49,477 bases of DNA from a virus (lineage: Duplodnaviria > Heunggongvirae > Uroviricota > Caudoviricetes), in the IMG/VR virus record IMGVR_UViG_2703718798_000005; one strand, given 5' to 3'. Positions 1,067 through 45,441 of the stretch are shown here, piece by piece (within the stretch, counting starts at the first letter, position 1; each line of letters begins with the position of its first letter). The notes below the pieces were generated by a model that searched no databases, was not told the DNA's origin, and saw only the letters and a list, made by a program, of their open reading frames with translations. The translations under genes were made by a program, and so were the position numbers.

Positions 1067-3172
1067 ATGAGTGAAGGACCAGGCGGGCCACAGGGAGCGA
1101 CCGCAGGCGGTACGCTGGCAATGCGAATGCTGTCACAGCAGGCGATGGTCGCCAGCCAGATGAAACGGGCAGCCAACGACAAAGCCATTGCACAGATGTT
1201 GGCATCAAAAAAGTCTGGCTCCCCCGCCGCCAGGCTGGGCGATGAAATTCAGCACAAGAGTTTTTTGGGGGCGCTGGCAGGGGCCGTGCTGGGGGCGATA
1301 GTGACCATCGCAGAAGGTTGCCTGATTATGGCCGCCTGTGCCACCGGCCCTTATGCGCTGGTTCTGGTGCCTGCGCTGATGTATGCCAGCTATAAGGCGA
1401 GTGATTATGTGGAGGAGAAACAGAACCAGCTTGAATCATGGATAAACAGCTTTTGTGACACGGACGGCGCCATCAATACCGGTTCTGAAAACGTAAAAAT
1501 TAACGGAAAGCCAGCAGCCCGTGCAGCCGTCACCCTTCCCCCTCCTCCCCCACCTGGAGCAATACCTGAAGTCCCACAGGGGGAACCCTCATGGGGTGAT
1601 ATTGCCACTGACCTGCTTGAATCGGCAGCGGAAAAAGCAGTACCACTGGCGAAGGCCTGGGGGAACGCTGTTATCACCCTGACGGACAGCAATGCCAGTT
1701 TTATGGATCGCGTCAGTGCAGGCGCATCGCTTCTGTTTCCCAGCGGCCCGGTATTAATGGAATTTGCCACGATGGTGGGCGGGCGTGGCGAAATCAAAAA
1801 AGATGTGGATTTCCCGGAAGCCGGTGAGGACACGGCGCTCTGCGACAAGGAGAACAAACCACCGAGGATAGCCCAGGGCAGCAGCAACGTCTTTATCAAC
1901 AATCAGCCTGCCGCGCGCCAGGGGGACAAACTGGAGTGCAGTGCGGCGATCGTGGAAGGTTCGCCGGACGTCTTTATTGGGGGTGAGCAGGTCACCTATC
2001 TGGATATCCAGCCGGAGTTCCCGCCATGGCAGAGAATGATCCTGGGAGGAATAACGATAGCCAGCTATCTTCTGCCGCCAGCAGGACTGCTGGGAAAACT
2101 GGGGAATCTGGCGAAACTGGGCAAACTGGGAAACCTGCTGGGGAAAAGCGGAAAGCTGCTGGGCGCAAAACTCGGCGCGTTGCTGGGGAAAACAGGTAAG
2201 TCGTTAAAAAGTATTGCCAATAAAGTCATCAGATGGGTAACAGATCCTGTCGATCCGGTAACCGGCGCGTACTGCGACGAACGTACCGACTTCACCCTGG
2301 GCCAGACCCTCCCCCTCTCCTTCACCCGTTTCCACAGTTCGGTACTGCCACTGCATGGCCTGACGGGCGTGGGCTGGAGTGACTCCTGGAGCGAATACGC
2401 CTGGGTGCGTGAACAGGGAAACCGGGTGGATATCATCAGCCTGGGAGCCACGCTGAACTTCGCCTTCGACGGTGAAAGTGATACGGCGGTTAACCCGTAT
2501 CACGCCCAGTACATTCTGCGCCGCCGTGATGATTATCTGGAGCTGTTCGACAGGGATGCACTGAGCAGCCGCTTCTTTTATGACGCCTTTCCGGGAATGC
2601 GTCTGCGCCACCCGGTGACTGACGATACCAGCGATGACCGCCTGGCACACAGCCCCGCAGACCGGATGTACATGCTGGGCGGGATGAGCGACACCGCCAG
2701 CAACCGCATCACGTTTGAGCGCGACAGCCAGTACCGGATCACGGGTGTCAGTCACACCGACGGGATCCGGCTTAAACTGACGTACCACGCCAGCGGCTAC
2801 CTGAAAGCCATTCACCGCACGGATAACGGCATACAGACGCTGGCGACCTACGAACAGGATGCGCGGGGGCGGCTGACAGAAGCGGATGCGCGGCTGGACT
2901 ACCACCTGTTTTATGAGTACGACGCTGCGGACCGGATCATCCGCTGGTCCGATAACGACCAGACGTGGAGCCGTTTCACCTACGATGAACAGGGCCGGTG
3001 CGTGACCGTCACCGGGGCGGAGGGCTATTACAACGCCACGCTGGACTATGGGGACGGCTGCACCACCGTGACGGACGGCAAGGGCGCTCACCGTTATTAC
3101 TATGATCCTGACGGCAATATTCTGCGGGAAGAAGCGCCGGACGGCAGCACCACCACGTATGAATGGGTGTAA
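1067..3172 (+). pseudogene. rhs: rhs T6SS effector, 5' portion (prePAAR motif, TM helices, PAAR domain, first Rhs repeats), truncated by prophage insertion
   Basis: 701 aa ORF: AARLGDEIQH prePAAR-type motif, hydrophobic helices, PAAR-like segment (NVFINNQPAARQGDKLECSAAIVEGSPDVFIGG), YDxxGR-type repeats; stops two codons into the prophage left end; reading frame continues at about 42661. Confidence 0.8.
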
Positions 3173-10738: not shown

Positions 10739-11253
10739 TGTTCTTTAAAACATCAAACCCTTCCGCGCTGGCCGCGTGGCAAAAATATCAGCAGGACTGC
10801 CAGAAAGTTAAGGATGAGGCAAAACGCCTTGAGGCCGTGCTGAATGTTGCGTGCCGGTCGGTATTTGTATCCGGTATCAGTGGCTTTTGTTTTAAAGGGC
10901 TGCGCTTTATGGATGACAAATATCCTTTTCATCGCGACTTATGGCGAAAACCGACTGCGTCGAATGGCTGGAGCTGCACACCGCGCACATCACGTATTCC
11001 CAAAGCCCTGCGCGTTGCCTCTGACGAACTTAACAGTCTGTGGCGTGAATATTCGCCCGTCACGTATGCCAGAACCGATGCCCTGTTGTTCTGGCTGGGC
11101 ATTGACTTTTCAGCAATATTGCATGGTCCCGTGAAGTGGTTCTGCGTTGACGATGTTATTTACCTTCAGTGCGAAGATGATTCCGCAAAACGGAAAATGA
11201 CCGAAATTCTGTCTGATGAGTTTTATGCTGCTGAAAAGCGAGTCAGGGGGTGA
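10738..11253 (+). CDS. Hypothetical early/middle protein
   Basis: 171 aa ORF, start overlaps the preceding stop. Confidence 0.45.
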   Translation: MFFKTSNPSALAAWQKYQQDCQKVKDEAKRLEAVLNVACRSVFVSGISGFCFKGLRFMDDKYPFHRDLWRKPTASNGWSCTPRTSRIPKALRVASDELNSLWREYSPVTYARTDALLFWLGIDFSAILHGPVKWFCVDDVIYLQCEDDSAKRKMTEILSDEFYAAEKRVRG

Positions 11254-13880: not shown

Positions 13881-14306
13881 ATGGCAGAAACTCAGATGAG
13901 CATGTTTGGTGGTGACAGTGAGCAACTGCACGCCCTTATCGACCGCCTTGATGACATCCCTGATGATGTTCTCAAAAAGAACTGGCCGCGGACCCTGTCA
14001 GAACTGGTTGAAGTCACCGGCGCAGAACTTCAGCGTCAGGGGATTGAGCCGGTACTGGCCGGTAAACTGGCACGCAAGGTGGCTGCGGCTCAGGCAGCCT
14101 ATATGGGCGGACGGGGTTATTACCTGCCGGTCGGGGAATCTCTCTTTGCCGAGCTGCGAAACAATGAGATATTTTCGCGCTGGGACCGGGGCGAGAAAAT
14201 TGAATCCCTTCGCCGCCATTACCGGATGTCAGAAACCCAGATTTATACCGTCATACGTGAACAGCGCCGTCTGCATCTGGCAAGAACGCAACCGCCACTT
14301 TTCTGA
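13881..14306 (+). CDS. Mor/C-family transcriptional activator (middle/late gene activator)
   Basis: 141 aa; C-terminal HTH-like LRRHYRMSETQIYTVIREQRR; lies between the early terminator and the lysis genes as in Mu. Confidence 0.6.
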   Translation: MAETQMSMFGGDSEQLHALIDRLDDIPDDVLKKNWPRTLSELVEVTGAELQRQGIEPVLAGKLARKVAAAQAAYMGGRGYYLPVGESLFAELRNNEIFSRWDRGEKIESLRRHYRMSETQIYTVIREQRRLHLARTQPPLF

Positions 14307-14377
14307 TATTCCGCAAAGCCTGCCGCCTTTCCTTCACCGTTACGCTGACTCAGAGAACATCATGAGACAGCGTAACA

Positions 14378-22104: not shown

Positions 22105-22280
22105 TTGTTTAAGGTATGCAAATGCATTACCTTACCCCCTTCAGGCGCGTGTCGTGATTTTCTAACCTGAATTTAACGGGCTTTAAAATCTGCGTGAAGC
22201 GCCTTTGTATTTTTCCCCTGAAAGCACTTCCTGAAATCCCGCAAAACCCGCCCTGAAAATTCCCGGCCTATGCTGCCGGA
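22105..22280. promoter_or_regulatory. Central G-I intergenic region: candidate late promoter and possible gyrase-site-like element
   Basis: 176 bp non-coding gap in an otherwise tightly packed late region; CCTGAA(A) at about 22166, 22217, 22230, 22252; imperfect palindrome AAGGTATGCAAATGCATTACCTT at about 22110. Confidence 0.35.
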
Positions 22281-23405
22281 ATGAAGACGAAAAACACGCC
22301 CAAACTTGCTTATGCCATTCTGAATGCCATCAGCCTGTCCGCAGACGGGGACGGTGACTGGTGTCAGATCATGCCAGCCGGTCGGGTAAAGGCCCGTGAC
22401 GGTCGCCCGGAAAAACCGGCCGAGGGCTGGCTGATCAACCATGCAGCCGTTGAGCGCATGGTCTCCCGTGTTGTGGCGCTCAATCAGCCGGTGAAAATTG
22501 ACTACAACCACCAGACCCTGATTGAGGGACATCCGGCACCGGCTGCCGGTTTTGTGATGGCCTCACCGGAGAATTTTCGCTTCAGTGAAGAGCGAGGTTT
22601 CGAGGTGCGCCCGAAGTGGAACCCTCCGGCCCTTGAACATCTGCGTAATAACGAATTCCCCTGGTTTTCACCGGTGATTGGCTATGACGAGAGCACCGGC
22701 GAACCTGTCGAACTTCGGATGCTGGCTATTACCGGTGACCCCGGTCTGACCGGCATGAATCCTGTCGCCGCACTGTCGGCGGATGACCTTTATAACGCCT
22801 TAAACCCTCCTTTAAAGGATACCTCCATGAATGAGCAATTACGCCAGTTGCTGACGGCGCTCGGTCTGACCGTGGCTGACGGTGACGAATTTACGCCGGA
22901 GCTGGGCACGGCAGCGCTGTCTGCCCTCACCGGGATCAAAACCCGTGCGGATGCACACGACAACCTGAAAACACAGGTCGCCAGTCTGTCGGCAGAGCTG
23001 GAAACTGCAAAAGGCACACCGGCTGGCGGCAGTATTGACCTGACGAAATACGTGCCCGTTGAAACGTATAACGCCCTGCGTACCGAATACGTTGCGCTGT
23101 CGGCGCAGCACGGCAGCACCACGCTGGAGCAGTTGCTGGACAAGGCCGAGTCCGAAGGACGCATCTTCAAAAGTGAACGCGGCTATCTGGAACAACTGGG
23201 CGGGCAGATTGGCGTGGCGGCACTCTCTGCACAGCTTGACGCCCGCCAGCCGGTTGCGGCCCTGACCGGCCTTCAGACCGACACCGTGACCGTGCCGGAT
23301 AAAAAGACTGCCACCGCTGTGCTGTCGGCTGAAGATATCGCGGCCGCCAAACTGCTGGGTAAAACCGAAGCCGAGTTCCTGAAAATGAAAGAGGAAATGC
23401 AATAA
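22281..23405 (+). CDS. Mu I-like head protease/scaffold protein
   Basis: 374 aa; position upstream of the major head gene; Ala/Leu-rich scaffold-like C-terminal half. Confidence 0.7.
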   Translation: MKTKNTPKLAYAILNAISLSADGDGDWCQIMPAGRVKARDGRPEKPAEGWLINHAAVERMVSRVVALNQPVKIDYNHQTLIEGHPAPAAGFVMASPENFRFSEERGFEVRPKWNPPALEHLRNNEFPWFSPVIGYDESTGEPVELRMLAITGDPGLTGMNPVAALSADDLYNALNPPLKDTSMNEQLRQLLTALGLTVADGDEFTPELGTAALSALTGIKTRADAHDNLKTQVASLSAELETAKGTPAGGSIDLTKYVPVETYNALRTEYVALSAQHGSTTLEQLLDKAESEGRIFKSERGYLEQLGGQIGVAALSAQLDARQPVAALTGLQTDTVTVPDKKTATAVLSAEDIAAAKLLGKTEAEFLKMKEEMQ

Positions 23406-35689: not shown

Positions 35690-36600
35690 TGTTCCATGTT
35701 GATAATAATTCCGGCGTGGCGAATATGCCTGAACTGGCTCCGGCGCAGAGTAATACCACCACCTGGTTTACCGAAGGTGACGGACAAAAAGGTATCAGCT
35801 GGATTGGTCAGGACTGGCTGAATATTCTCCAGGCCGAACTGCTGAATATTCTGGCTGAAGCCAGTATTCAGCCGGATAAGGCGCAGTTAAACCAGCTTAC
35901 GCTGTCCATTAAAGCCATTATCGCTGCGAATGCCTTTTCCCGGAAAAACAACCTGAAAGAAATTGCTGATGCCGGTGCGGAAGCCCAGCGTCTGGCCCGT
36001 GGTTATCTTGGTCTGGGGACGCTTGCCACAAAAAACAGTCTTGGTCCCGCTGACGTTAATGCCCTGGCGAAGGATCAGAACCTTGCCGACCTGGAGAATG
36101 CGGAAACCGCCCGTAATAATCTGGATGTTTACAGCAGGAGCGAAGGTGATAACCGTTACCTGCGCAGGGACCAGAATGGCGCGGATATCCAGGACAAAGG
36201 AACCTTTATCGATAACCTCGGTTTACGGGAAACGGTAAATAAGGCTGCTGATGCCCTGCCATCGGCTGGAACCGCCGTGGCAGCAAACAGACTCGCCACC
36301 CCAAGAAATATTAATGGTGTTCCTTTTGACGGAACGCTGGATATCAACATCACGTCAGGAATGACGCAGTCAACCGCAGATGGCCGGTATGTACAGAATG
36401 TTCAGCTTGGAGCACAGAGCTATCATTCACCCGGAGGCAATGAAATGTCATGGAATTACAGCGCACCTTCCGGTTGTATGCTTTCCGGTATTAACGTGCA
36501 GGAAACCGGCTCCCGGTCTGCGGACAATATCGGTGGGGTCTATTATCGCCCGGTTCAGATTTATATTAATAATACCTGGAGAACGGTAAGTTCAGTGTAA
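35689..36600 (+). CDS. Tail fibre protein S (constant part plus currently fused variable tip)
   Basis: Start at ATG 35689 overlapping the preceding stop; crosses the left recombination site at about 36206-36231; last roughly 120 aa lie inside the invertible segment. Confidence 0.8.
   Translation: MFHVDNNSGVANMPELAPAQSNTTTWFTEGDGQKGISWIGQDWLNILQAELLNILAEASIQPDKAQLNQLTLSIKAIIAANAFSRKNNLKEIADAGAEAQRLARGYLGLGTLATKNSLGPADVNALAKDQNLADLENAETARNNLDVYSRSEGDNRYLRRDQNGADIQDKGTFIDNLGLRETVNKAADALPSAGTAVAANRLATPRNINGVPFDGTLDINITSGMTQSTADGRYVQNVQLGAQSYHSPGGNEMSWNYSAPSGCMLSGINVQETGSRSADNIGGVYYRPVQIYINNTWRTVSSV
36206..36231. repeat. Left recombination site (gix-like) inside the tail fibre gene
   Basis: TTATCGATAACCTCGGTTTACGGGAA, close to the Mu gix sequence as recalled. 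Confidence 0.7.
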
Positions 36601-36634
36601 ACCACAGAAAAGGGTGCTGAATGCACCCTCTGAA

Positions 36635-37156
36635 TTATTCCGGTTTTTCCGGCCAGGGAATCGCCTGGTAATGCCCCTCACTGGCAATATCATTAAAGTG
36701 CATTTCTTTAAGCTGTCGGATATACGCCATCCAGCGCGTCAGCTGTAATTTATTTTCATCGCTAATCATGTCCAGTTTTAATTCTGTTTTCCAGTCATCC
36801 ACGGTTTCGTTGGCTTCCTGGAGCAGCGATGAGCGACGCTTTTCAGCAACCGTCTTCCAGTTTACCGGCACCTTTGATATCAGGCCATCAGAAAACTGCC
36901 AGTTACCGTCAATATTCACACCTTCCGGCAGTTCGTCCACTTCAACAACAGTAAAACCTGCCGGATATAAAGCAGAGACATCTTCAGCAACAGAGCAGAT
37001 AATACCCGTTACAGGCGAAATACAGAGTTTGTATTTCTTTGTAAAAAGCGGGATAGATTCATAAAAATCCCTTCCGTCCTCACTCTGGAAATACTGAACA
37101 TCCTCACCATAGGGTTTGTCTTTCGGGTAATATCGTTTGACATTAATCAGTTGCAT
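36635..37156 (-). CDS. Tail fibre assembly protein (Tfa/U-like)
   Basis: Start moved to internal Met (MQLINVKRYY); C-terminal ...QAIPWPEKPE typical of Tfa chaperones; inside the invertible segment. Confidence 0.75.
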   Translation of the reverse strand: MQLINVKRYYPKDKPYGEDVQYFQSEDGRDFYESIPLFTKKYKLCISPVTGIICSVAEDVSALYPAGFTVVEVDELPEGVNIDGNWQFSDGLISKVPVNWKTVAEKRRSSLLQEANETVDDWKTELKLDMISDENKLQLTRWMAYIRQLKEMHFNDIASEGHYQAIPWPEKPE

Positions 37157-37277
37157 AAACATCACCATGTAAATCAATGATAAAAACAGGAATAATACTA
37201 TCGCCATATACAGGCAATGCTTGTCTGAAATAACGCATATTTCAGATGCTGGCTGCTGTGTGCTATGCCCCCGTTAA

Positions 37278-37649
37278 TTAAATACTTGCAGCGGATACCC
37301 AATGCCCATTAATACAATATTGTATCTGTCTGTAATAAACACGGTCATCACCACCACGCATTTCCCAGTCTCCGTCAGTCTTAAAACCGGTAATCACATT
37401 TCCTGATGACAGGGAGTAATTATATTCCAGTCCGCCGCTTAATGCCTGCGCTCCCAGTCTTACCCCTGTAACATAACGCTGATTGGCCGTTGATTCCGGC
37501 ATTCCTGACGTAATGTTTATATCCTGCGTGCCGTCAAAGGCGACACCATTGATTCTGCGGGCATTTGCCAGCCTGCTTGCTGCAACAGCCGTACCGTTTG
37601 ATGGCAGGGCATTCGCGGCCCTGTTTACCGTATCCCGTAAACCGAGGTT
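37278..37649 (-). CDS. Alternative tail-fibre C-terminal segment (promoterless until inversion)
   Basis: Minus-strand frame reads NLGLRDTVNRAANALPSNGTAVAASRLA..., parallel to NLGLRETVNKAADALPSAGTAVAANRLA... of the expressed tip; a stop lies immediately outside the right recombination site. Confidence 0.7.
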   Translation of the reverse strand, partial: NLGLRDTVNRAANALPSNGTAVAASRLANARRINGVAFDGTQDINITSGMPESTANQRYVTGVRLGAQALSGGLEYNYSLSSGNVITGFKTDGDWEMRGGDDRVYYRQIQYCINGHWVSAASI

Positions 37650-37657
37650 TCAGGGAT
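37632..37657. repeat. Right recombination site (gix-like), inverted
   Basis: ATCCCGTAAACCGAGGTTTCAGGGAT, inverted relative to the left site. Confidence 0.7.
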
Positions 37658-37711
37658 GCCGTATATCTACTTTAAAAGGCTTTTCCACCTCTTTTTAAGG
37701 AAGGTAAATAC

Positions 37712-38272
37712 ATGCTGATTGGCTATATACGCGTATCAACAAATGACCAGAACACCGGTTTACAAAGAAATGCGCTGGAATGTGCAGGATGTGAGCAGAT
37801 TTTTGAAGACAAAATGAGTGGTAAAACGACACAGCGGCCGGGACTGAAGCGGGCACTGAAGAAACTAAAACCCGGTGACACGCTGATGGTCTGGAAACTG
37901 GACAGGCTGGGGCGCAGTATGCGCCACCTTGTTGCGCTGACAGATGAATTACAGCAACAGGGGATAAATTTTCGTAGTCTTACTGACAACATTGATACGT
38001 CAACCCCCATGGGGCGCTTCTTTTTTCACATAATGGGTGCGCTGGCAGAAATGGAGCGTGAATTAATTGTCGAACGGACACGGGCTGGTCTTGCAGCTGC
38101 CCGTGAAAGGGGACGAACCGGCGGCAGACCCCGCCGTCTCACGCAGGAACAATACGAGCAGGTCGGGCGTTTACTGGCCGGGGGTGTCAGTCGAAGACAG
38201 GTGGCACTTATTTTTGATATCGGTCTTTCAACCCTTTATCGTTATTATCCTGCGAGCGTTTCGGAAAAATAA
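37712..38272 (+). CDS. gin: Serine DNA invertase (Gin/Hin/Cin family)
   Basis: 186 aa; N-terminal MLIGYIRVSTNDQN catalytic-Ser motif; C-terminal HTH; adjacent to the invertible segment. Confidence 0.9.
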   Translation: MLIGYIRVSTNDQNTGLQRNALECAGCEQIFEDKMSGKTTQRPGLKRALKKLKPGDTLMVWKLDRLGRSMRHLVALTDELQQQGINFRSLTDNIDTSTPMGRFFFHIMGALAEMERELIVERTRAGLAAARERGRTGGRPRRLTQEQYEQVGRLLAGGVSRRQVALIFDIGLSTLYRYYPASVSEK

Positions 38273-38371
38273 GACGCTCTCTTTGTTGGGCCTTTACTGA
38301 ATTAACGCAAAATGGCGTTTATCGGTCTGTGGATATGATAATTCAGTTTATTCAGGAACAGGCTGATTATT

Positions 38372-40411
38372 ATGACGTCCAAATGGGTTCAACTATCATC
38401 AATGCCCGGAAACTTTACTGTTAAAGTTTCCGGTGGTACAGCGGCATTTCTTGAGGCTCCCTTTCCTCCGGCCGAAACAAAAGGAGGAATGACATTTGCT
38501 GACTGTCTCATCAGTTTTAATACACGGGATTGCCTGTGGGTAAGGCCAGTATCCGGTGATCCGAGTGTGGAAATTACCGGAGCGGGTATTGGTGCGGTCA
38601 TTCCGTTAAGTGCTGATGTTGCCGGTACTGCTGAACCGTCAGACTGGGATAATGCTGAAACACATACCCGTCCGTCAGGAAATGAAACTGCTTCCAGCTC
38701 CCCTTCCTGGTATTACGTGGTGGTTCTTGCTGGTCAGTCAAACGGTATGGCTTACGGTGAAGGTCTGCCACTGCCGGAGACATATGACCGCCCCGAACCG
38801 CGTATTATGCAGTTAGCCCGTCGCAGTACAGTCACGCCGGGAGGTAAAGCCTGTCAGTATAACGACATCATTCTGGCCGACCACTGTCTGCATGATGTGC
38901 AGGATATGAGTGGAAAAAATCACCCGAAAGCGGATGTGGCTAAAGGGCAATATGGCACCGTGGGTCAGGGGCTTCACATTGCCAAAAAACTGCTGCCGTT
39001 TATTCCGGCAGATGCGGGGATTCTGCTGGTTCCCTGCTGCCGTGGTGGTTCTGCATTCACGGCGGGTGCTGACGGCACGTACAGTGACAGCACGGGTGCT
39101 TCAGAGGACTCAGCCCGCTGGGGTGTGGATAAGCCGCTGTATAAGGACTTAATCAGCCGGACAAAAGCGGCACTGGCGAAGAACCCGAAAAACCGCCTGC
39201 TTGCTGTGGTGTGGATGCAGGGCGAGTTTGATATTGATGCGAAGCCGACGGAGCATTCTGCGCTGTTTCTGGCGATGGTGGAAAAATTCCGCGCAGACCT
39301 GGCTGAACAGGCGGAACAGTGTACCGGTGGCAGTGCTGCTGGCGTTCCGTGGATTTGTGGCGATACCACGTATTTCTGGAAACAGAAAAATGAACCAGCA
39401 TACCAGGCAATCTATGGCGGCTACAAAAACAAAACAGATAAAAACATTCATTTCGTTCCATTAATGACAGATGAAAATGGCGTGAATGTACCCACCAACA
39501 ATCCGGCAGAAGACCCGGATATTGAATCCATTGGTTATTACGGCTCAACGTGGCGTAACAGTGCCGCTACCTGGACATCTGCGGACCGGGCCAGCCATTT
39601 CAGTGCCTGGGCGCGCCGGGGTATTATTTCTGACCGTCTGGCCACGGCTGTTCTGACTCATGCAGGGCGAACCACAGTAAAAGCCGATGTTCCATCTTCT
39701 GAAACTGAAGCACCAGTGCCGTCACCTTCAGAAACTGAAGCAGTAACCACAACACTGCTGTCTTACCGTGTCAGTGAGTCAGAAGGAAATCTGAAAGCCC
39801 AGGGCTGGGAGCCGGCTGGCGGTAAAGCTGAAATTATCAGTGATGCAGGAGGCACAGGTGGTAAGGCAATGAAACTGACCAAGGAAACAGGTAAATCATC
39901 CTGGTATCTGGATCATGATGCCGGTACTGGTGCTGAACTGCTGAAAAATGGTGGTTTAATCAGTTGTCGTTTTAAAGTACCTGGCGACCTGGTGGCAAAC
40001 CAGTATGTCATGGCGCTTTACTGGCCGGTTTCCTCTCTGCCGCAGGGTGTCACCCTGACAGGGGATGCAGGGAATAATCTGCTGGCATCGTTCTACATCC
40101 AGACAGACGCAAAAGACCTGAATGTGATGTACCACAATGCAAAAGTGGCAACAAATAACCAGAAACTGGGAACCTTTGGTGCATTTGATAATGAATGGCA
40201 TACGCTGGCCTTCCGTTTTGCAGGAAATAACAGCCTTCAGGTTATTCCGGTTATTGATGGTCAGGATGGTGCCGCGTTTACCCTGACGCAGTCACCAGTA
40301 GGAACTTTCCCGGTGGACAAACTCCGCGTAACGGATATCACCAAAAATGCAACTTACCCGGTGCTGATTGACAGCATTGTGGTGGAAGTGAAAAAAGCGG
40401 TAACAGAATAA
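38372..40411 (+). CDS. Cargo protein: SASA/SGNH-type esterase domain (sialate O-acetylesterase-like, NanS-p-like) with a lectin-like C-terminal domain
   Basis: 679 aa; YYVVVLAGQSNGMAYGEG block resembles the GQSN motif of DUF303/SASA esterases; C-terminal 200 aa may be a ConA-like beta-sandwich; no counterpart at this position in Mu. Confidence 0.55.
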   Translation: MTSKWVQLSSMPGNFTVKVSGGTAAFLEAPFPPAETKGGMTFADCLISFNTRDCLWVRPVSGDPSVEITGAGIGAVIPLSADVAGTAEPSDWDNAETHTRPSGNETASSSPSWYYVVVLAGQSNGMAYGEGLPLPETYDRPEPRIMQLARRSTVTPGGKACQYNDIILADHCLHDVQDMSGKNHPKADVAKGQYGTVGQGLHIAKKLLPFIPADAGILLVPCCRGGSAFTAGADGTYSDSTGASEDSARWGVDKPLYKDLISRTKAALAKNPKNRLLAVVWMQGEFDIDAKPTEHSALFLAMVEKFRADLAEQAEQCTGGSAAGVPWICGDTTYFWKQKNEPAYQAIYGGYKNKTDKNIHFVPLMTDENGVNVPTNNPAEDPDIESIGYYGSTWRNSAATWTSADRASHFSAWARRGIISDRLATAVLTHAGRTTVKADVPSSETEAPVPSPSETEAVTTTLLSYRVSESEGNLKAQGWEPAGGKAEIISDAGGTGGKAMKLTKETGKSSWYLDHDAGTGAELLKNGGLISCRFKVPGDLVANQYVMALYWPVSSLPQGVTLTGDAGNNLLASFYIQTDAKDLNVMYHNAKVATNNQKLGTFGAFDNEWHTLAFRFAGNNSLQVIPVIDGQDGAAFTLTQSPVGTFPVDKLRVTDITKNATYPVLIDSIVVEVKKAVTE

Positions 40412-41021: not shown

Positions 41022-41569
41022 CAATACCGACCGGCAGGTTTCCCTGCCGGGTGAGTTTGTTAATGCACGTTTTGTGTATTTTCCCTCCTGGGAGAACAGG
41101 CAGGACATATCAGCATCCTGAAACAGGAAGCATTTTTGGGTTTGTATGTCTTGCCATTTTGAGATCGAGAACGGCGATAGATGAGCTGTAAGGGAGTCTT
41201 ACAGGCAGGGCAAACAGGCTCTTTCATCCATGATAAAGATCTCCTTTTTATGCATCTCTGCTTTACAGGAGACTGGGGAATATCATAGGATACGCCACGA
41301 GCTCGAAGTAAAGCATTGATGCAAAATTGTCTAAATCGGCCCAGAATAGTTCGCGCTATCTGGGTCGCTCTTTATGTATGTAGTATCCCATTGATTTGAA
41401 ACATACTACATATACGCGCGATCCTACCTTCACTATATAAAAAGTCAATAAAATGATCATTTTATGATCGTTTTCACCACCTAACTCTTCGTTTTCTTTA
41501 AGTAAATAATCACCTACCTGAATCATTGTTGATGACTTTTCAATCTATTTGTTGTATCAATTAAACAAA

Positions 41570-41640
41570 TCGAATCGATCGTTTTTGTCGATCGATTGCA
41601 TGAGAAAGGCATCAACAACAAAGCAGGAGGTTATGCGGCC
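41570..41640 (+). promoter_or_regulatory. com-mom promoter-proximal region with paired GATC sites
   Basis: GATC at about 41577 and 41590 within ATCGAATCGATCGTTTTTGTCGATCGATTG; RBS AGGAGG before com. Confidence 0.4.
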
Positions 41641-41841
41641 ATGTATCGAAACATACGGTGCCGACACTGCAATAAGCTACTGGCACGGGCCAGTTTCAGT
41701 TATCTGGAAGTAAAATGTCCGCGCTGTAAAACCCTCAATCAAATCACATCTCCGAGCGCCACAGAGCACCCCACATACACAAGGAAATCCTGTCGTGGGG
41801 AACAGAAAGCAAGTCACATCCCGAATCATCAGCACGCCTGA
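41641..41841 (+). CDS. com: Com-like zinc-finger translational activator of mom
   Basis: Start moved to ATG 41641; [14 protein letters not shown]...[11 protein letters not shown] four-Cys pattern like Mu Com; overlaps the mom start. Confidence 0.75.
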
Positions 41842-42532
41842 ACTTATTCGCTATAACGACAATATCGTTGGTTATGGCTCCCGTGAGTTGCGGGTTGAGA
41901 CAATAAGTTGCTGGCTGGCCAGACTGGTCATCGTCAATAAACATTACAGCCACCGTTTCGTAAATAACTCCTACCTTCATCTGGGCATATTTTCAGAACG
42001 GGAACTTGTTGGCGTAATGCAATGGGGTTACGCCCTTAACCCAAACAGTGGTGCACGCGTCGTAACGGGTACGCAGAACCGAGAATATATGGAGCTTAAC
42101 CGGCTATGGCTGCATGACTGTATGCCGAGAAACTCCGAATCAAGGGCAATCAGTTACGCGCTCAAGCTAATCAGGCAGCTTTATCCGCAGGTACAGTGGG
42201 TTCAGTCGTTTGCAGATGAGCGTTGTGGCTGTCTTGGTGTCGTGTATCAGGCAAGCAATTTTGATTATGTAGGCAGCCATGAATCAATATTCTATGAACT
42301 TGATGGCGAGTGGTATCACGAGATTTGCAGGAATGCCATTAAACGAGGCGGACAACGAGGTGAACATCTGAGGGCTAATATTGACAGAGCCAATGTTCAT
42401 AAGTTCCGACAGTTTCGTTACATCCGGTTTCTGAACAAGAGGGCCAAAAAACGCCTCAACACAAAGCTATTCAAAGTCCAGCCTTACCCAAAACCACAAA
42501 CAGTTAAAACTGGTTTGAAAGAGAGTGAATGA
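41795..42532 (+). CDS. mom: Mom-like DNA modification protein
   Basis: 245 aa; last gene at the right end and overlapped by com, as in Mu; start codon uncertain. Confidence 0.75.
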
Positions 42533-42584
42533 GCGCTTAAAAACTCATTCTAAAACTCAAAAGAAAAGCGCCGATTTAGTATCA

Positions 42585-42659
42585 AATAAGTTGCGTATCG
42601 GCGTTTTTCAGCAGTATCAAATGAAATGCAAATCGGTATCAAAAAAATCGCCGCGCTAT
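42585..42659. repeat. Prophage right end (attR-like) with three inverted TTTGATAC repeats
   Basis: AGTATCAAA at about 42588, AGTATCAAA at about 42613, GGTATCAAA at about 42636. Confidence 0.5.
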
Positions 42660-42660
42660 A

Positions 42661-45441
42661 TGGGATGAATACCATCACCTGCTGGCCCGCCACTCCCCTG
42701 CCGGGCGGGTGGAGAAATTTGAATACAACGCCGCACATGGTCAGTTAAGCTGTTATACGGCGGCAGACGGCGCGGAGTGGCAGTACTGCTATGATGAGCG
42801 CGGCCTGCTCAGCAACATCACCGACCCTGCCGGGCAGACGTGGACGCAGCAGTGTGATGAACGCGGCCTGCCGGTGAGTCTGGTGTCGCCACAGGGCGAA
42901 GAGACCCGGCTGGCATACACCGCACAGGGGCTGCTGTCGGGAATATTCCGCCAGGATGAACGGCACCTGGGCATAGAGTACGACCACCACAACCGGCCGG
43001 AAACACTCACCGACGTGATGGGCCGTGAACACCACACCGAATACAGTGGTCACGACCTGCCGGTGAAGATGCGCGGCCCCGGCGGTTAGTCAGTGCGGTT
43101 GCAGTGGCAGCAGCACCATAAACTGAGCGGCCTTGAGCGGGCAGGAACCGGCGCAGAAGGATTCCGCTATGACCGCCACGGCAACCTGCTGGCGTACACG
43201 GACGGTAACGGCGTTGTCTGGACAATGGAATACGGCCCGTTTGATTTGCCGGTGGCGCGAACGGACGGTGAAGGCCACCGCTGGCAGTACCGCTACGATA
43301 AAGACACGCTGCAACTGACAGAAGTCATTAACCCGCAGGGCGAGTCTTATCTTTATATTCTGGACAACTGTGGCCGGGTGACGGAAGAACGTGACTGGGG
43401 CGGCGTGGTCTGTCGTTACCGCTATGACGCCGATGGCCTGTGTACCGCCAGGGTTAACGGCCTGGAGGAAACTATCCTCTACAGCCGGGACGCCGCAGGC
43501 CGCCTGGCAGAAATCATCACGCCGGAAGGCAAAACGCAGTATGCGTATGACAAATCCGGCAGGCTGACGGGTATCTTCAGCCCGGACGGCACATCACAGC
43601 GCACCGGCTATGATGAACGCGGGCGGGTGAATGTCACCACTCAGGGCCGACGGGCCATTGAATACCACTACCCCGACGAACACACCGTCATCCGCTGTAT
43701 CCTGCCACCGGAAGATGAACGCGACAGACACCCCGATGAATCCCTGCTGAAAACCACGTACCGTTATAACGCCGCCGGAGAACTGACGGAGGTCATTCTG
43801 CCGGGGGATGAGACGCTGACGTTCAGCCGTGATGAGGCGGGACGTGAAGTGCTCCGGCACAGTAACCGGGGTTTTGCCTGTGAGCAGGGCTGGAATGCAG
43901 CCAGCCAGCTTGTCACCCAGCGCGCCGGATTTTTCCCGGAGGAAACCACATGGGGCGGGCTGCTCCCCTCACTGGTACGGGAGTACCGTTACGACAGCGC
44001 GGGCAATGTGTCGGCTGTCACCAGCCGGGAAGATTACGGACGGGAAACACGGCGGGAGTACCGGCTGGACCGGAACGGTCAGGTCACGGCGGTGACAGCC
44101 TCAGGCACCGGGCTGGGCTATGGCGAAGGCGATGAGTCCTATGGCTATGACAGTTGTGGCTACCTGAAGGCGCAGTCTGCGGGCAGGCACCGGATAAGTG
44201 AAGAGACTGACCAGTATGCCGGAGGCCACCGGCTGAAACAGGCCGGAAACACGCAGTATGACTATGACGCCGCAGGCCGGATGGTCAGCCGCACAAAACA
44301 CCGTGACGGCTACCGCCCGGAAACAGAGCGGTTCCGGTGGGACAGCCGGGACCAGCTGACCGGGTATTGCAGCGCACAGGGTGAACAGTGGGAATACCGC
44401 CACGACGCCAGCGGCAGACGAACAGAGAAACGCTGTGACAGGAAGAAAATCCGCTTCACGTACCTGTGGGATGGCGACAGTATTGCGGAAATCCGGGAAT
44501 ACCGCGATGATGAACTGTACAGCGTACGGCACCTGGTGTTTAACGGCTTTGAGCTGATAAGCCAGCAGTGCAGCCGGGTACGGCAGCCGCACCCGTCCGT
44601 GGCCCCGCAGTGGGTGACGCGAACGAATCATGCGGTGAGCGACCTGACGGGCCGCCCGCTGATGCTCTTTAACAGTGAAGGTAAAACCGTCTGGCGGCCG
44701 GGGCAGACCAGCCTGTGGGGGCTGGCACTCAGCCTGCCCGCAGACACCGGCTACCCGGACCCGCGCGGGGAGCGGGACCCGGAAGCGGACCCCGGCCTGC
44801 TGTATGCGGGACAGTGGCAGGATGCAGAATCGGGGCTGTGCTATAACCGGTTCCGGTACTACGAGCCGGAAACCGGGATGTACCTGGTGAGTGATCCGCT
44901 GGGGTTGCAGGGAGGGGAGCAGACTTACCGGTATGTGCCGAATCCTTGTGGGTATATCGATCCTTTGGGGCTGGCTATATGTCAGTTAGCCCGCTGGACG
45001 AAATGGGGGAGTGAGCAAAGCAACATATCTGATGTTTTGAACTCATTAGGGAATAGAGCACTTAAATATGCTAATGGTGATTGGATAAAATCAGAGGCTG
45101 CATTCAATAAATACATAAACATGATAAATAAAAGACTAGAATTAACAGGTAGTAAATTTAGAGTTGAGATTCAACCAGCCATAAAAAATGGAGAGCGAGT
45201 TCCTGCGACAACGAATGGACCATTTAAAGTAAATGGTAAGTGGACATCCGGCACTCATTATACAGGTGGTTCCAAACGTCTAGATGCCGGTATTATTGAT
45301 ATCACATCTCCTACAAACCAATATGGATTACATCCAGTTATTGAAGGATTTGATATAACACTTAATAAAACAAAACCATCAGCAGTGGATATATATTCAG
45401 ATGTGTTTGGTGGGATTGATATTAACGACATTCGGTTATAA
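42661..45441 (+). pseudogene. rhs: rhs effector, 3' portion (Rhs repeat core and C-terminal toxin tip), with in-frame TAG at 43087-43089
   Basis: Frame continues the 5' fragment; ORF track splits it into 42709-43089 and 43093-45441 around a TAG; DPLGL-type demarcation (YIDPLGLA) at about 44960; low-GC C-terminal tip of about 150 aa. Confidence 0.8.

Follow-up and report, generated by a model that had tools for sequence, protein, structure and literature searches.

Is the short region that precedes a com-like and a mom-like gene in this Mu-like prophage a methylation-sensitive switch of the kind described for phage Mu, and, if so, which protein would read the methylation state of its two GATC sites? 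Our answer, to which we assign a probability of about 0.75, is that the region belongs to the com-mom operon of a Mu-like, Sp18-type prophage whose transcription is controlled, as we infer, by Dam and OxyR and whose translation is controlled by Com. That is, this com-mom pair is a relative of the well-studied Mu system, found in an already annotated prophage family, with a compact promoter-operator layout. The whole element lies within the stretch of DNA analysed here (49,477 nt; hereafter, the window), spanning about 3168-42659 (~39.5 kb), and it is flanked by the two halves of an Rhs/YD-repeat gene that the insertion interrupts, with an apparent 5-bp ATGGG target duplication at 3163-3168 and 42659-42664. 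Based on Pfam domains, the genes upstream of com-mom include those for a repressor, for homologues of MuA and MuB, for an activator of the Mor/C family and for a lysozyme, followed by head and tail genes, and mom is the last prophage gene, its stop codon being 127 bp from the right end. The right end itself (42533..42659, no strand assigned) carries repeated GTATCAAA-type motifs, which are probably transposase-binding sites, and the homologous end is annotated in LC727881. The terminus reads ...CGCGCTAT(A), as compared to a CA dinucleotide in Mu, with the exact end uncertain by one base. Between the tail-fibre region and com-mom lies a gene for a 679-aa protein (38372-40411) with a SASA sialate-O-acetylesterase-type domain and DUF6645, whose product may be a receptor-modifying, tail-associated esterase; its slot is the place held by gin in Mu. 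The gene upstream of com in the window is not gin.

The region is, thus, the com-mom operon at the right end of a transposable prophage of a type common in E. coli O157. We found the com region in 233 of 5426 complete E. coli genomes (about 4%), many of them O157:H7, and at different insertion sites (e.g., flg and xdh), as expected of a transposable phage. SP18, a Mu-like phage of O157, was reported by Drozdz et al. to encode Mom plus its regulators (PMC3299994), and RefSeq annotations of Com and Mom already exist for the E. coli copies, with com called as the same 201-nt CDS. The RefSeq name of the product is "Com family DNA-binding transcriptional regulator" (e.g., L006, 3262-3462), and Com has been described experimentally as an RNA-binding translational activator (PMC6483171).

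An earlier note on this DNA had described a Com-like ORF with four cysteines overlapping the start of a Mom-like gene, and formal searches bear this description out for both genes. The com gene (41641..41841, plus strand, ATG start) encodes a 66-aa CCCC zinc-ribbon protein with cysteines at C7, C10, C26 and C29, which matches Pfam PF10122 (Zn_ribbon_Com) at 1.9e-12, above the curated cut-off, and shares 47% identity with Mu Com. It is preceded by the Shine-Dalgarno sequence AGGAGG (41625..41630, plus strand), the GAG core of which is invariant across our 13-lineage alignment (below). The 3' end of com overlaps by 47 nt the 5' end of mom (41795..42532, plus strand, GTG start), which encodes a 245-aa, GNAT-fold protein. 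The latter matches Pfam PF25680 (Mom) at 2.6e-77, also above the curated cut-off, shares 79% identity with Mu Mom, and matches the solved Mu Mom structure (PDB 8bv8) with E = 1.7e-123; hence, the similarity to Mom on which the earlier description depended is clear. No NCBIfam model scored above its cut-off for either Com or Mom.

All ten Mu Mom residues that we checked, active-site as well as structural ones, have their equivalents in the window protein (Y28, W48, H58, Y59, R111, S124, D149, R151, Y159 and W181), which thus retains the full set of catalytic residues. Mutational work on Mu Mom showed that nine of these (W48, H58, Y59, R111, S124, D149, R151, Y159 and W181) are critical or important, and that mutation of Y28 has little effect; the same study, published in 2026, showed that Mu Mom moves glycine from Gly-tRNA(Gly) to the N6 of adenine, followed by a rearrangement on the base (PMC13219725). 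The window Mom is, by similarity, predicted to be a tRNA(Gly)-dependent adenine N6 modification enzyme, and this predicted activity would yield N6-carbamoylmethyl-adenine and protect the phage DNA from restriction.

The sequence elements of the translational layer of control are preserved relative to Mu. The RNA target of Com is CC(N)2-3GAG, presented in the loop of a hairpin beside the stem with the mom GUG (PMC6483171), and the window carries a match to this motif, CC-ACA-GAG (41759..41766, plus strand), located 2 nt 5' of the stem of the translation inhibition structure (TIS; 41769..41800, plus strand). In the latter, CCCCAC (41769-41774) pairs with GUGGGG (41795-41800), hiding the mom GUG, and the mom Shine-Dalgarno sequence, AAGGA (41781-41785, plus strand), falls within the loop. 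Predicted RNA folds of the window and Mu show the same stem, the Mu version being CCCAC/GUGGG. The Com motif and the TIS arms are kept in every lineage examined while the length and sequence of the loop vary; covariation support for the TIS is absent because the stem arms never vary, and these arms also overlap the com coding sequence. No Rfam family matches the region or its RNA elements. Overall, the layout is that of Mu: com and mom come in the same order and overlap, the GUG start is within the stem, the Com motif is of the CC-N3-GAG form, and mom closes the right end of a transposable phage.

Turning to the DNA upstream of com, the two GATC sites are located at 41577-41580 and 41590-41593, i.e., with a start-to-start spacing of 13 bp, within a perfect palindrome (41573..41597, no strand assigned) composed of the arms AATCGATCG (41573-41581) and CGATCGATT (41589-41597) separated by N7. 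The earlier note had placed such a pair at about 41577 and 41590, inside a palindrome 50-60 bp upstream of com. The coordinates and the 13-bp spacing are confirmed; the palindrome holds for the 9-bp arms, but the longer ATCGAATCGATCG...CGATCGATTG string quoted in that note is not fully palindromic, and the distances, when measured from the com ATG at 41641, are 64 and 51 bp. Judged by the window alone, the close spacing of two GATCs is at chance level, with five adjacent pairs at a distance of 13 bp or less vs. ~5.8 expected by a Poisson estimate from the GATC density of the window. Over 200-bp segments, the density of GATC in the window peaks at 41420-41619, where five sites comprise the pair and three further ones, at 41420, 41455 and 41466, and an 18-bp, perfect, GATC-centred palindrome, ATAAAATGATCATTTTAT (41448-41465), is found in the same segment. 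The GATCs of 41420-41475 are part of a hypothetical gene on the minus strand that carries a frameshift (41060-41526), and relatives that have another upstream gene do not keep them. The mom gene itself contains no GATC and is part of a GATC-free stretch (41594-44892; next site at 44893); another long stretch of this kind is found at 36074-38557.

The pair is more than a chance occurrence because of the comparative evidence, not the statistics within the window. Among 80 com loci fetched from IMG/VR, which provided 48 distinct 160-bp upstream regions, most of the distinct regions have the pair placed between -64/-51 and -66/-53 relative to the start codon of com, and a separate analysis found the 13-bp pair in 39 of 42 distinct com upstream regions; several lineages have a third GATC 18 bp upstream, similar to Mu. 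When 13 diverged lineage representatives, including Mu, were aligned (alignment A1; mean column identity of 52%), invariance in the upstream part was limited to both GATCs (with the AT that follows the second), the Shine-Dalgarno GAG, and bases two and three of the start codon. Further, a search of 2.9 million viral contigs in IMG/VR with the pattern AATCGATC-N9-GATCGATT returned 60 exact matches, and 52 of these have com at a fixed distance of either 68 bp, in loci of the window type, or 95 bp, in those of the Mu type, which makes the exact palindrome nearly specific to com upstream regions in this dataset. The remaining eight matches are in unrelated contexts, a number about as expected by chance. 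Variants of the region were also encountered: in one lineage (L074, L077 and L078), whose com precedes an N6_N4 methylase, the entire GATC cluster (about 60 bp upstream of com) is deleted while com and a downstream TTATCAT -10-like element are retained, and, in L052, the middle GATC is mutated to GAAC.

The palindrome, AATCGATC...GATCGATT, is also shared with Mu, where it takes the N9-spaced form used in the search above and contains GATC II and III, 13 bp apart. The alignment with Mu shows the window pair to be homologous to GATC II and III of the mom control region, and the likeness to that region proposed by the earlier note therefore stands, down to the equal spacing. The two regions differ in other respects. 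Mu has three GATCs, with GATC I located 18 bp upstream, whereas the window has two and carries TATC at 41555-41558 instead. In addition, the pair precedes the com ATG by 51 bp in the window and by 78 bp in Mu, which places it 27 bp closer in the former, and the shorter interval leaves no room for the C site and the 19-bp-spacer promoter of Mu. The components of the Mu interval (a TTAT-N6-ATAA C site, a poor -35, a T-rich, 19-bp spacer, and a TAAGAT -10) have no counterpart between the GATC pair and com in the window. This C-site/promoter insert is carried only by Mu-type loci and by L079.

The window phage does encode a Mor/C-family late activator homologue (13881..14306, plus strand; Pfam Mor PF08765, 2.8e-32), directly upstream of the lysozyme gene and with 39% identity to Mu C, and this protein may activate com-mom. 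Late-gene starts in the window show no enrichment of the Mu-type ATAACCCC motif, which is uninformative here. A different motif, TYCCGCAAA-N23-TAYGCT, has its TYCCGCAAA part at 14309-14317 (upstream of lys) and 22237-22245 (upstream of the gene at 22281), and also at 11181 and 18373; it is not significant by itself, is similar to the AATCCCGCA core of two Mu promoters, Plys and PI, and may serve this phage as a late-promoter (C-site) motif. No copy precedes com, and the com upstream region shares no motif with the upstream regions of the late genes. Accordingly, C dependence of com-mom is a possibility for the lineage of the window.

These data bear on an alternative explanation for the palindrome, namely that the dimeric C/Mor homologue encoded by the phage, not OxyR, binds it, with the GATCs being incidental. 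Mor/C proteins bind dyad-symmetric sites beside weak promoters (PMC4461284), the sequence right after the palindrome offers no good -10 or -35, and the window lineage lacks a Mu-type C site, all of which would fit. However, in Mu, the PvuI fragment bound by purified C is the one cut off downstream of the palindrome, and TTAT-N6-ATAA lies beside the palindrome, not in it. Moreover, the palindrome is common to phages whose C proteins are as distant as the 39% identity mentioned above, no similar sequence or GATC pair is found upstream of lys and other late operons in the window, and the invariance is limited to the GATC tetranucleotides rather than extending over whole arms. Hence, we consider this alternative very unlikely.

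Where transcription of com-mom begins is a related issue. A sigma-70 scan detected no promoter between the palindrome and com, and the sequences available at the -10 position in the window lineage (TGAGAA, GAGAAA, CATCAA) are degenerate. The sister lineages with a similarly short interval ('short' lineages) have a good -10, either TATACT or TGtTATCAT, that begins 11 nt after the proximal GATC, and their -35 and spacer fall partly within the operator; lineages of the TGtTATCAT type also carry an upstream terminator. Close relatives of the window have TATCAT or TATCAA a few bases downstream. By comparison with the sister lineages, we tentatively place a candidate core promoter and transcription start of com-mom between about 41598 and 41624 (plus strand), with low confidence. 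Promoters picked by hand (GAGAAA, CATCAA, and ATGACT-17-TATCAA) were weak and not conserved as promoters, and were rejected. In a lineage with an N6_N4 methylase (L047), a strong intrinsic terminator (1352-1379) is located about 60 bp upstream of the GATC cluster, which shows that, in that lineage, com is transcribed together with its cargo as a unit of their own.

The position of the promoter also matters for the possibility that the palindrome acts as RNA, either as a leader hairpin of a transcript starting further upstream (at ATGACT-17-TATCAA, 41533-41561) or as a terminator of antisense transcripts coming from the prophage end. The predicted fold of 41560-41645 indeed includes a 9-bp hairpin, the palindrome was flagged as terminator-like on the minus strand by our scan, in the window as well as in relatives, and the ATGACt/a-17-TATCAA element is common to window-type lineages. 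Nonetheless, the hairpin lacks a downstream U-tract on the plus strand, and the arm sequences differ between lineages without a compensatory logic while the GATCs are invariant. Further, the good -10 of the sister lineages is downstream of, or overlaps, the palindrome, which would put the palindrome outside the transcript, and the upstream candidate promoter matches at 8/12 positions by our own count and was missed by the sigma-70 scan. An RNA role for the palindrome thus appears extremely unlikely, and we return to a DNA element whose methylation state would be read by a protein.

OxyR is the best candidate for this protein. Consensus scans, together with conserved partner half-sites, delineate a putative OxyR binding region at 41547..41592 (no strand assigned). 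Its central half-site, ATCGTTTTTGTCGAT (41578-41592), matches 7/10 consensus positions and spans both GATCs, and candidate partner half-sites are located at 41556-41570 (6/10; offset -22) and 41547-41561 (7/10; offset -31). These two offsets are said to be, following Toledano and colleagues in 1994, the spacings of oxidised and reduced OxyR. A scan of the whole window with the two-half-site consensus gave six positions with at least 13/20 matches, four of which, including the best one (14/20), start within 41525-41556, although the matches are moderate (6-7/10 per half-site) and the AT-rich, repetitive sequence inflates overlapping registers. Across 39 upstream variants, the mean half-site score was 7.5/10 for the central position, 5.8 at -22 and 6.8 at -31, compared to 2.4 (background) at downstream offsets.

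A protein other than OxyR could, in principle, sense the methylation state of the pair; for instance, SeqA bound to hemimethylated pairs could time expression to phage replication. SeqA prefers two GATCs about one helical turn apart. The spacing of the window pair is about one helical turn and, hence, of the type that SeqA uses as substrate, and the intense replication of Mu-type phages produces hemimethylated DNA. On the other hand, the half-sites conserved at -22 and -31 fit OxyR, and SeqA needs none. In the homologous Mu region, experiments by Bolker and Kahmann (1989) and by Hattman and Sun (1997), cited in PMC3378877 and PMC2909390, identified OxyR as the factor. We therefore regard SeqA, or a similar sensor, as highly improbable, and favor OxyR.

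Known systems provide additional context for OxyR. Mu mom transcription is established to be both Dam- and OxyR-dependent (cited in PMC3378877, PMC4461284 and PMC2909390). In the gtr switch of Salmonella and P22, for which OxyR/Dam control is proven by experiment, each 13-bp GATC pair is contained in one half-site for an OxyR dimer (ATAGxTxxxAxCTAT), and OxyR no longer binds once the sites are methylated (PMC2909390). The window resembles gtr and agn43 in having a 13-bp GATC pair in one putative OxyR half-site and further candidate half-sites about 22 and 31 bp away; if the core promoter lies where we tentatively place it, the operator would also adjoin or cover it, as opposed to being far upstream. 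It differs from them in that just one half-site carries GATCs, the cargo is a toxic DNA-modification gene with an extra, translational control, and phase variation is undemonstrated even for Mu mom (PMC2909390). The EHEC methylome papers make no mention of GATC sites at com. Based on sequence comparison, OxyR would bind the com operator in the lineage of the window, and com-mom expression is predicted to be Dam-dependent.

Under the model we favor, the two GATCs would be contained in one OxyR dimer half-site, with the partner half-sites upstream. When the GATCs are unmethylated or hemimethylated, host OxyR would be bound and would block the adjacent weak promoter; full methylation by Dam would exclude OxyR and permit transcription, which the phage C-family activator would probably boost late in lytic growth. 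From the resulting transcript, com would be translated first, and Com would then act on the CC-ACA-GAG hairpin to open the CCCCAC/GUGGGG stem that hides the mom GUG. Mom would, in turn, transfer glycine from Gly-tRNA(Gly) to the adenine N6 of phage DNA, leading to protection from restriction. A variation on this scheme starts from the short architecture, which is common to most enterobacterial com loci: if the operator is located directly on the core promoter, similar to agn43 and gtr and unlike Mu, whose operator is upstream of a promoter activated by C, the module could be C-independent and epigenetically bistable. We view this variation as unlikely.

The comparisons also revealed that the control elements are not tied to mom. 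Mom is the cargo behind the operator-com-TIS unit in the window and in L037 and L043, while a C5-cytosine methylase (PF00145) takes this place in LC727881 (L002, 1990-3050), L033-L036 and L038-L042, and an N6_N4 methylase (PF01555) in L044-L078. The enterobacterial C5-cytosine and N6_N4 cassettes retain the GATC pair. A D12 adenine methylase (PF02086) follows com in a more distant lineage (L082-L084), and the pair is absent in the more distant com lineages as a whole (L080-L086), the D12 one included. Homology between cassettes breaks directly after GTGGGGAAC, the 3' arm of the TIS. Genes similar to com before methylases other than Mom have been reported previously, i.e., FluMu Hin1523, Pnm1 Nme1821 and Hia5 (PMC3299994); these loci have the com and TIS module in common with the window, the cargo in the window being Mom. 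Judging from these arrangements, the operator-com-TIS unit appears to behave as a portable control cassette before at least four unrelated DNA-modification enzymes.

In summary, the elements of the multilayer control of a toxic, anti-restriction gene are kept in a prophage family that is carried by about one in 25 complete E. coli genomes, including O157:H7, and, among the features upstream of com, none is more conserved between diverged lineages than the two GATCs. The lineages described here, with two or three GATCs, short or long spacing, or a deleted operator, constitute natural variants for dissecting the switch. Finally, if the C-independent, bistable reading were true, a subpopulation of lysogens would heritably express Mom, or the C5, N6_N4 and D12 methyltransferases that take its place, and expression would not be confined to late lytic growth.
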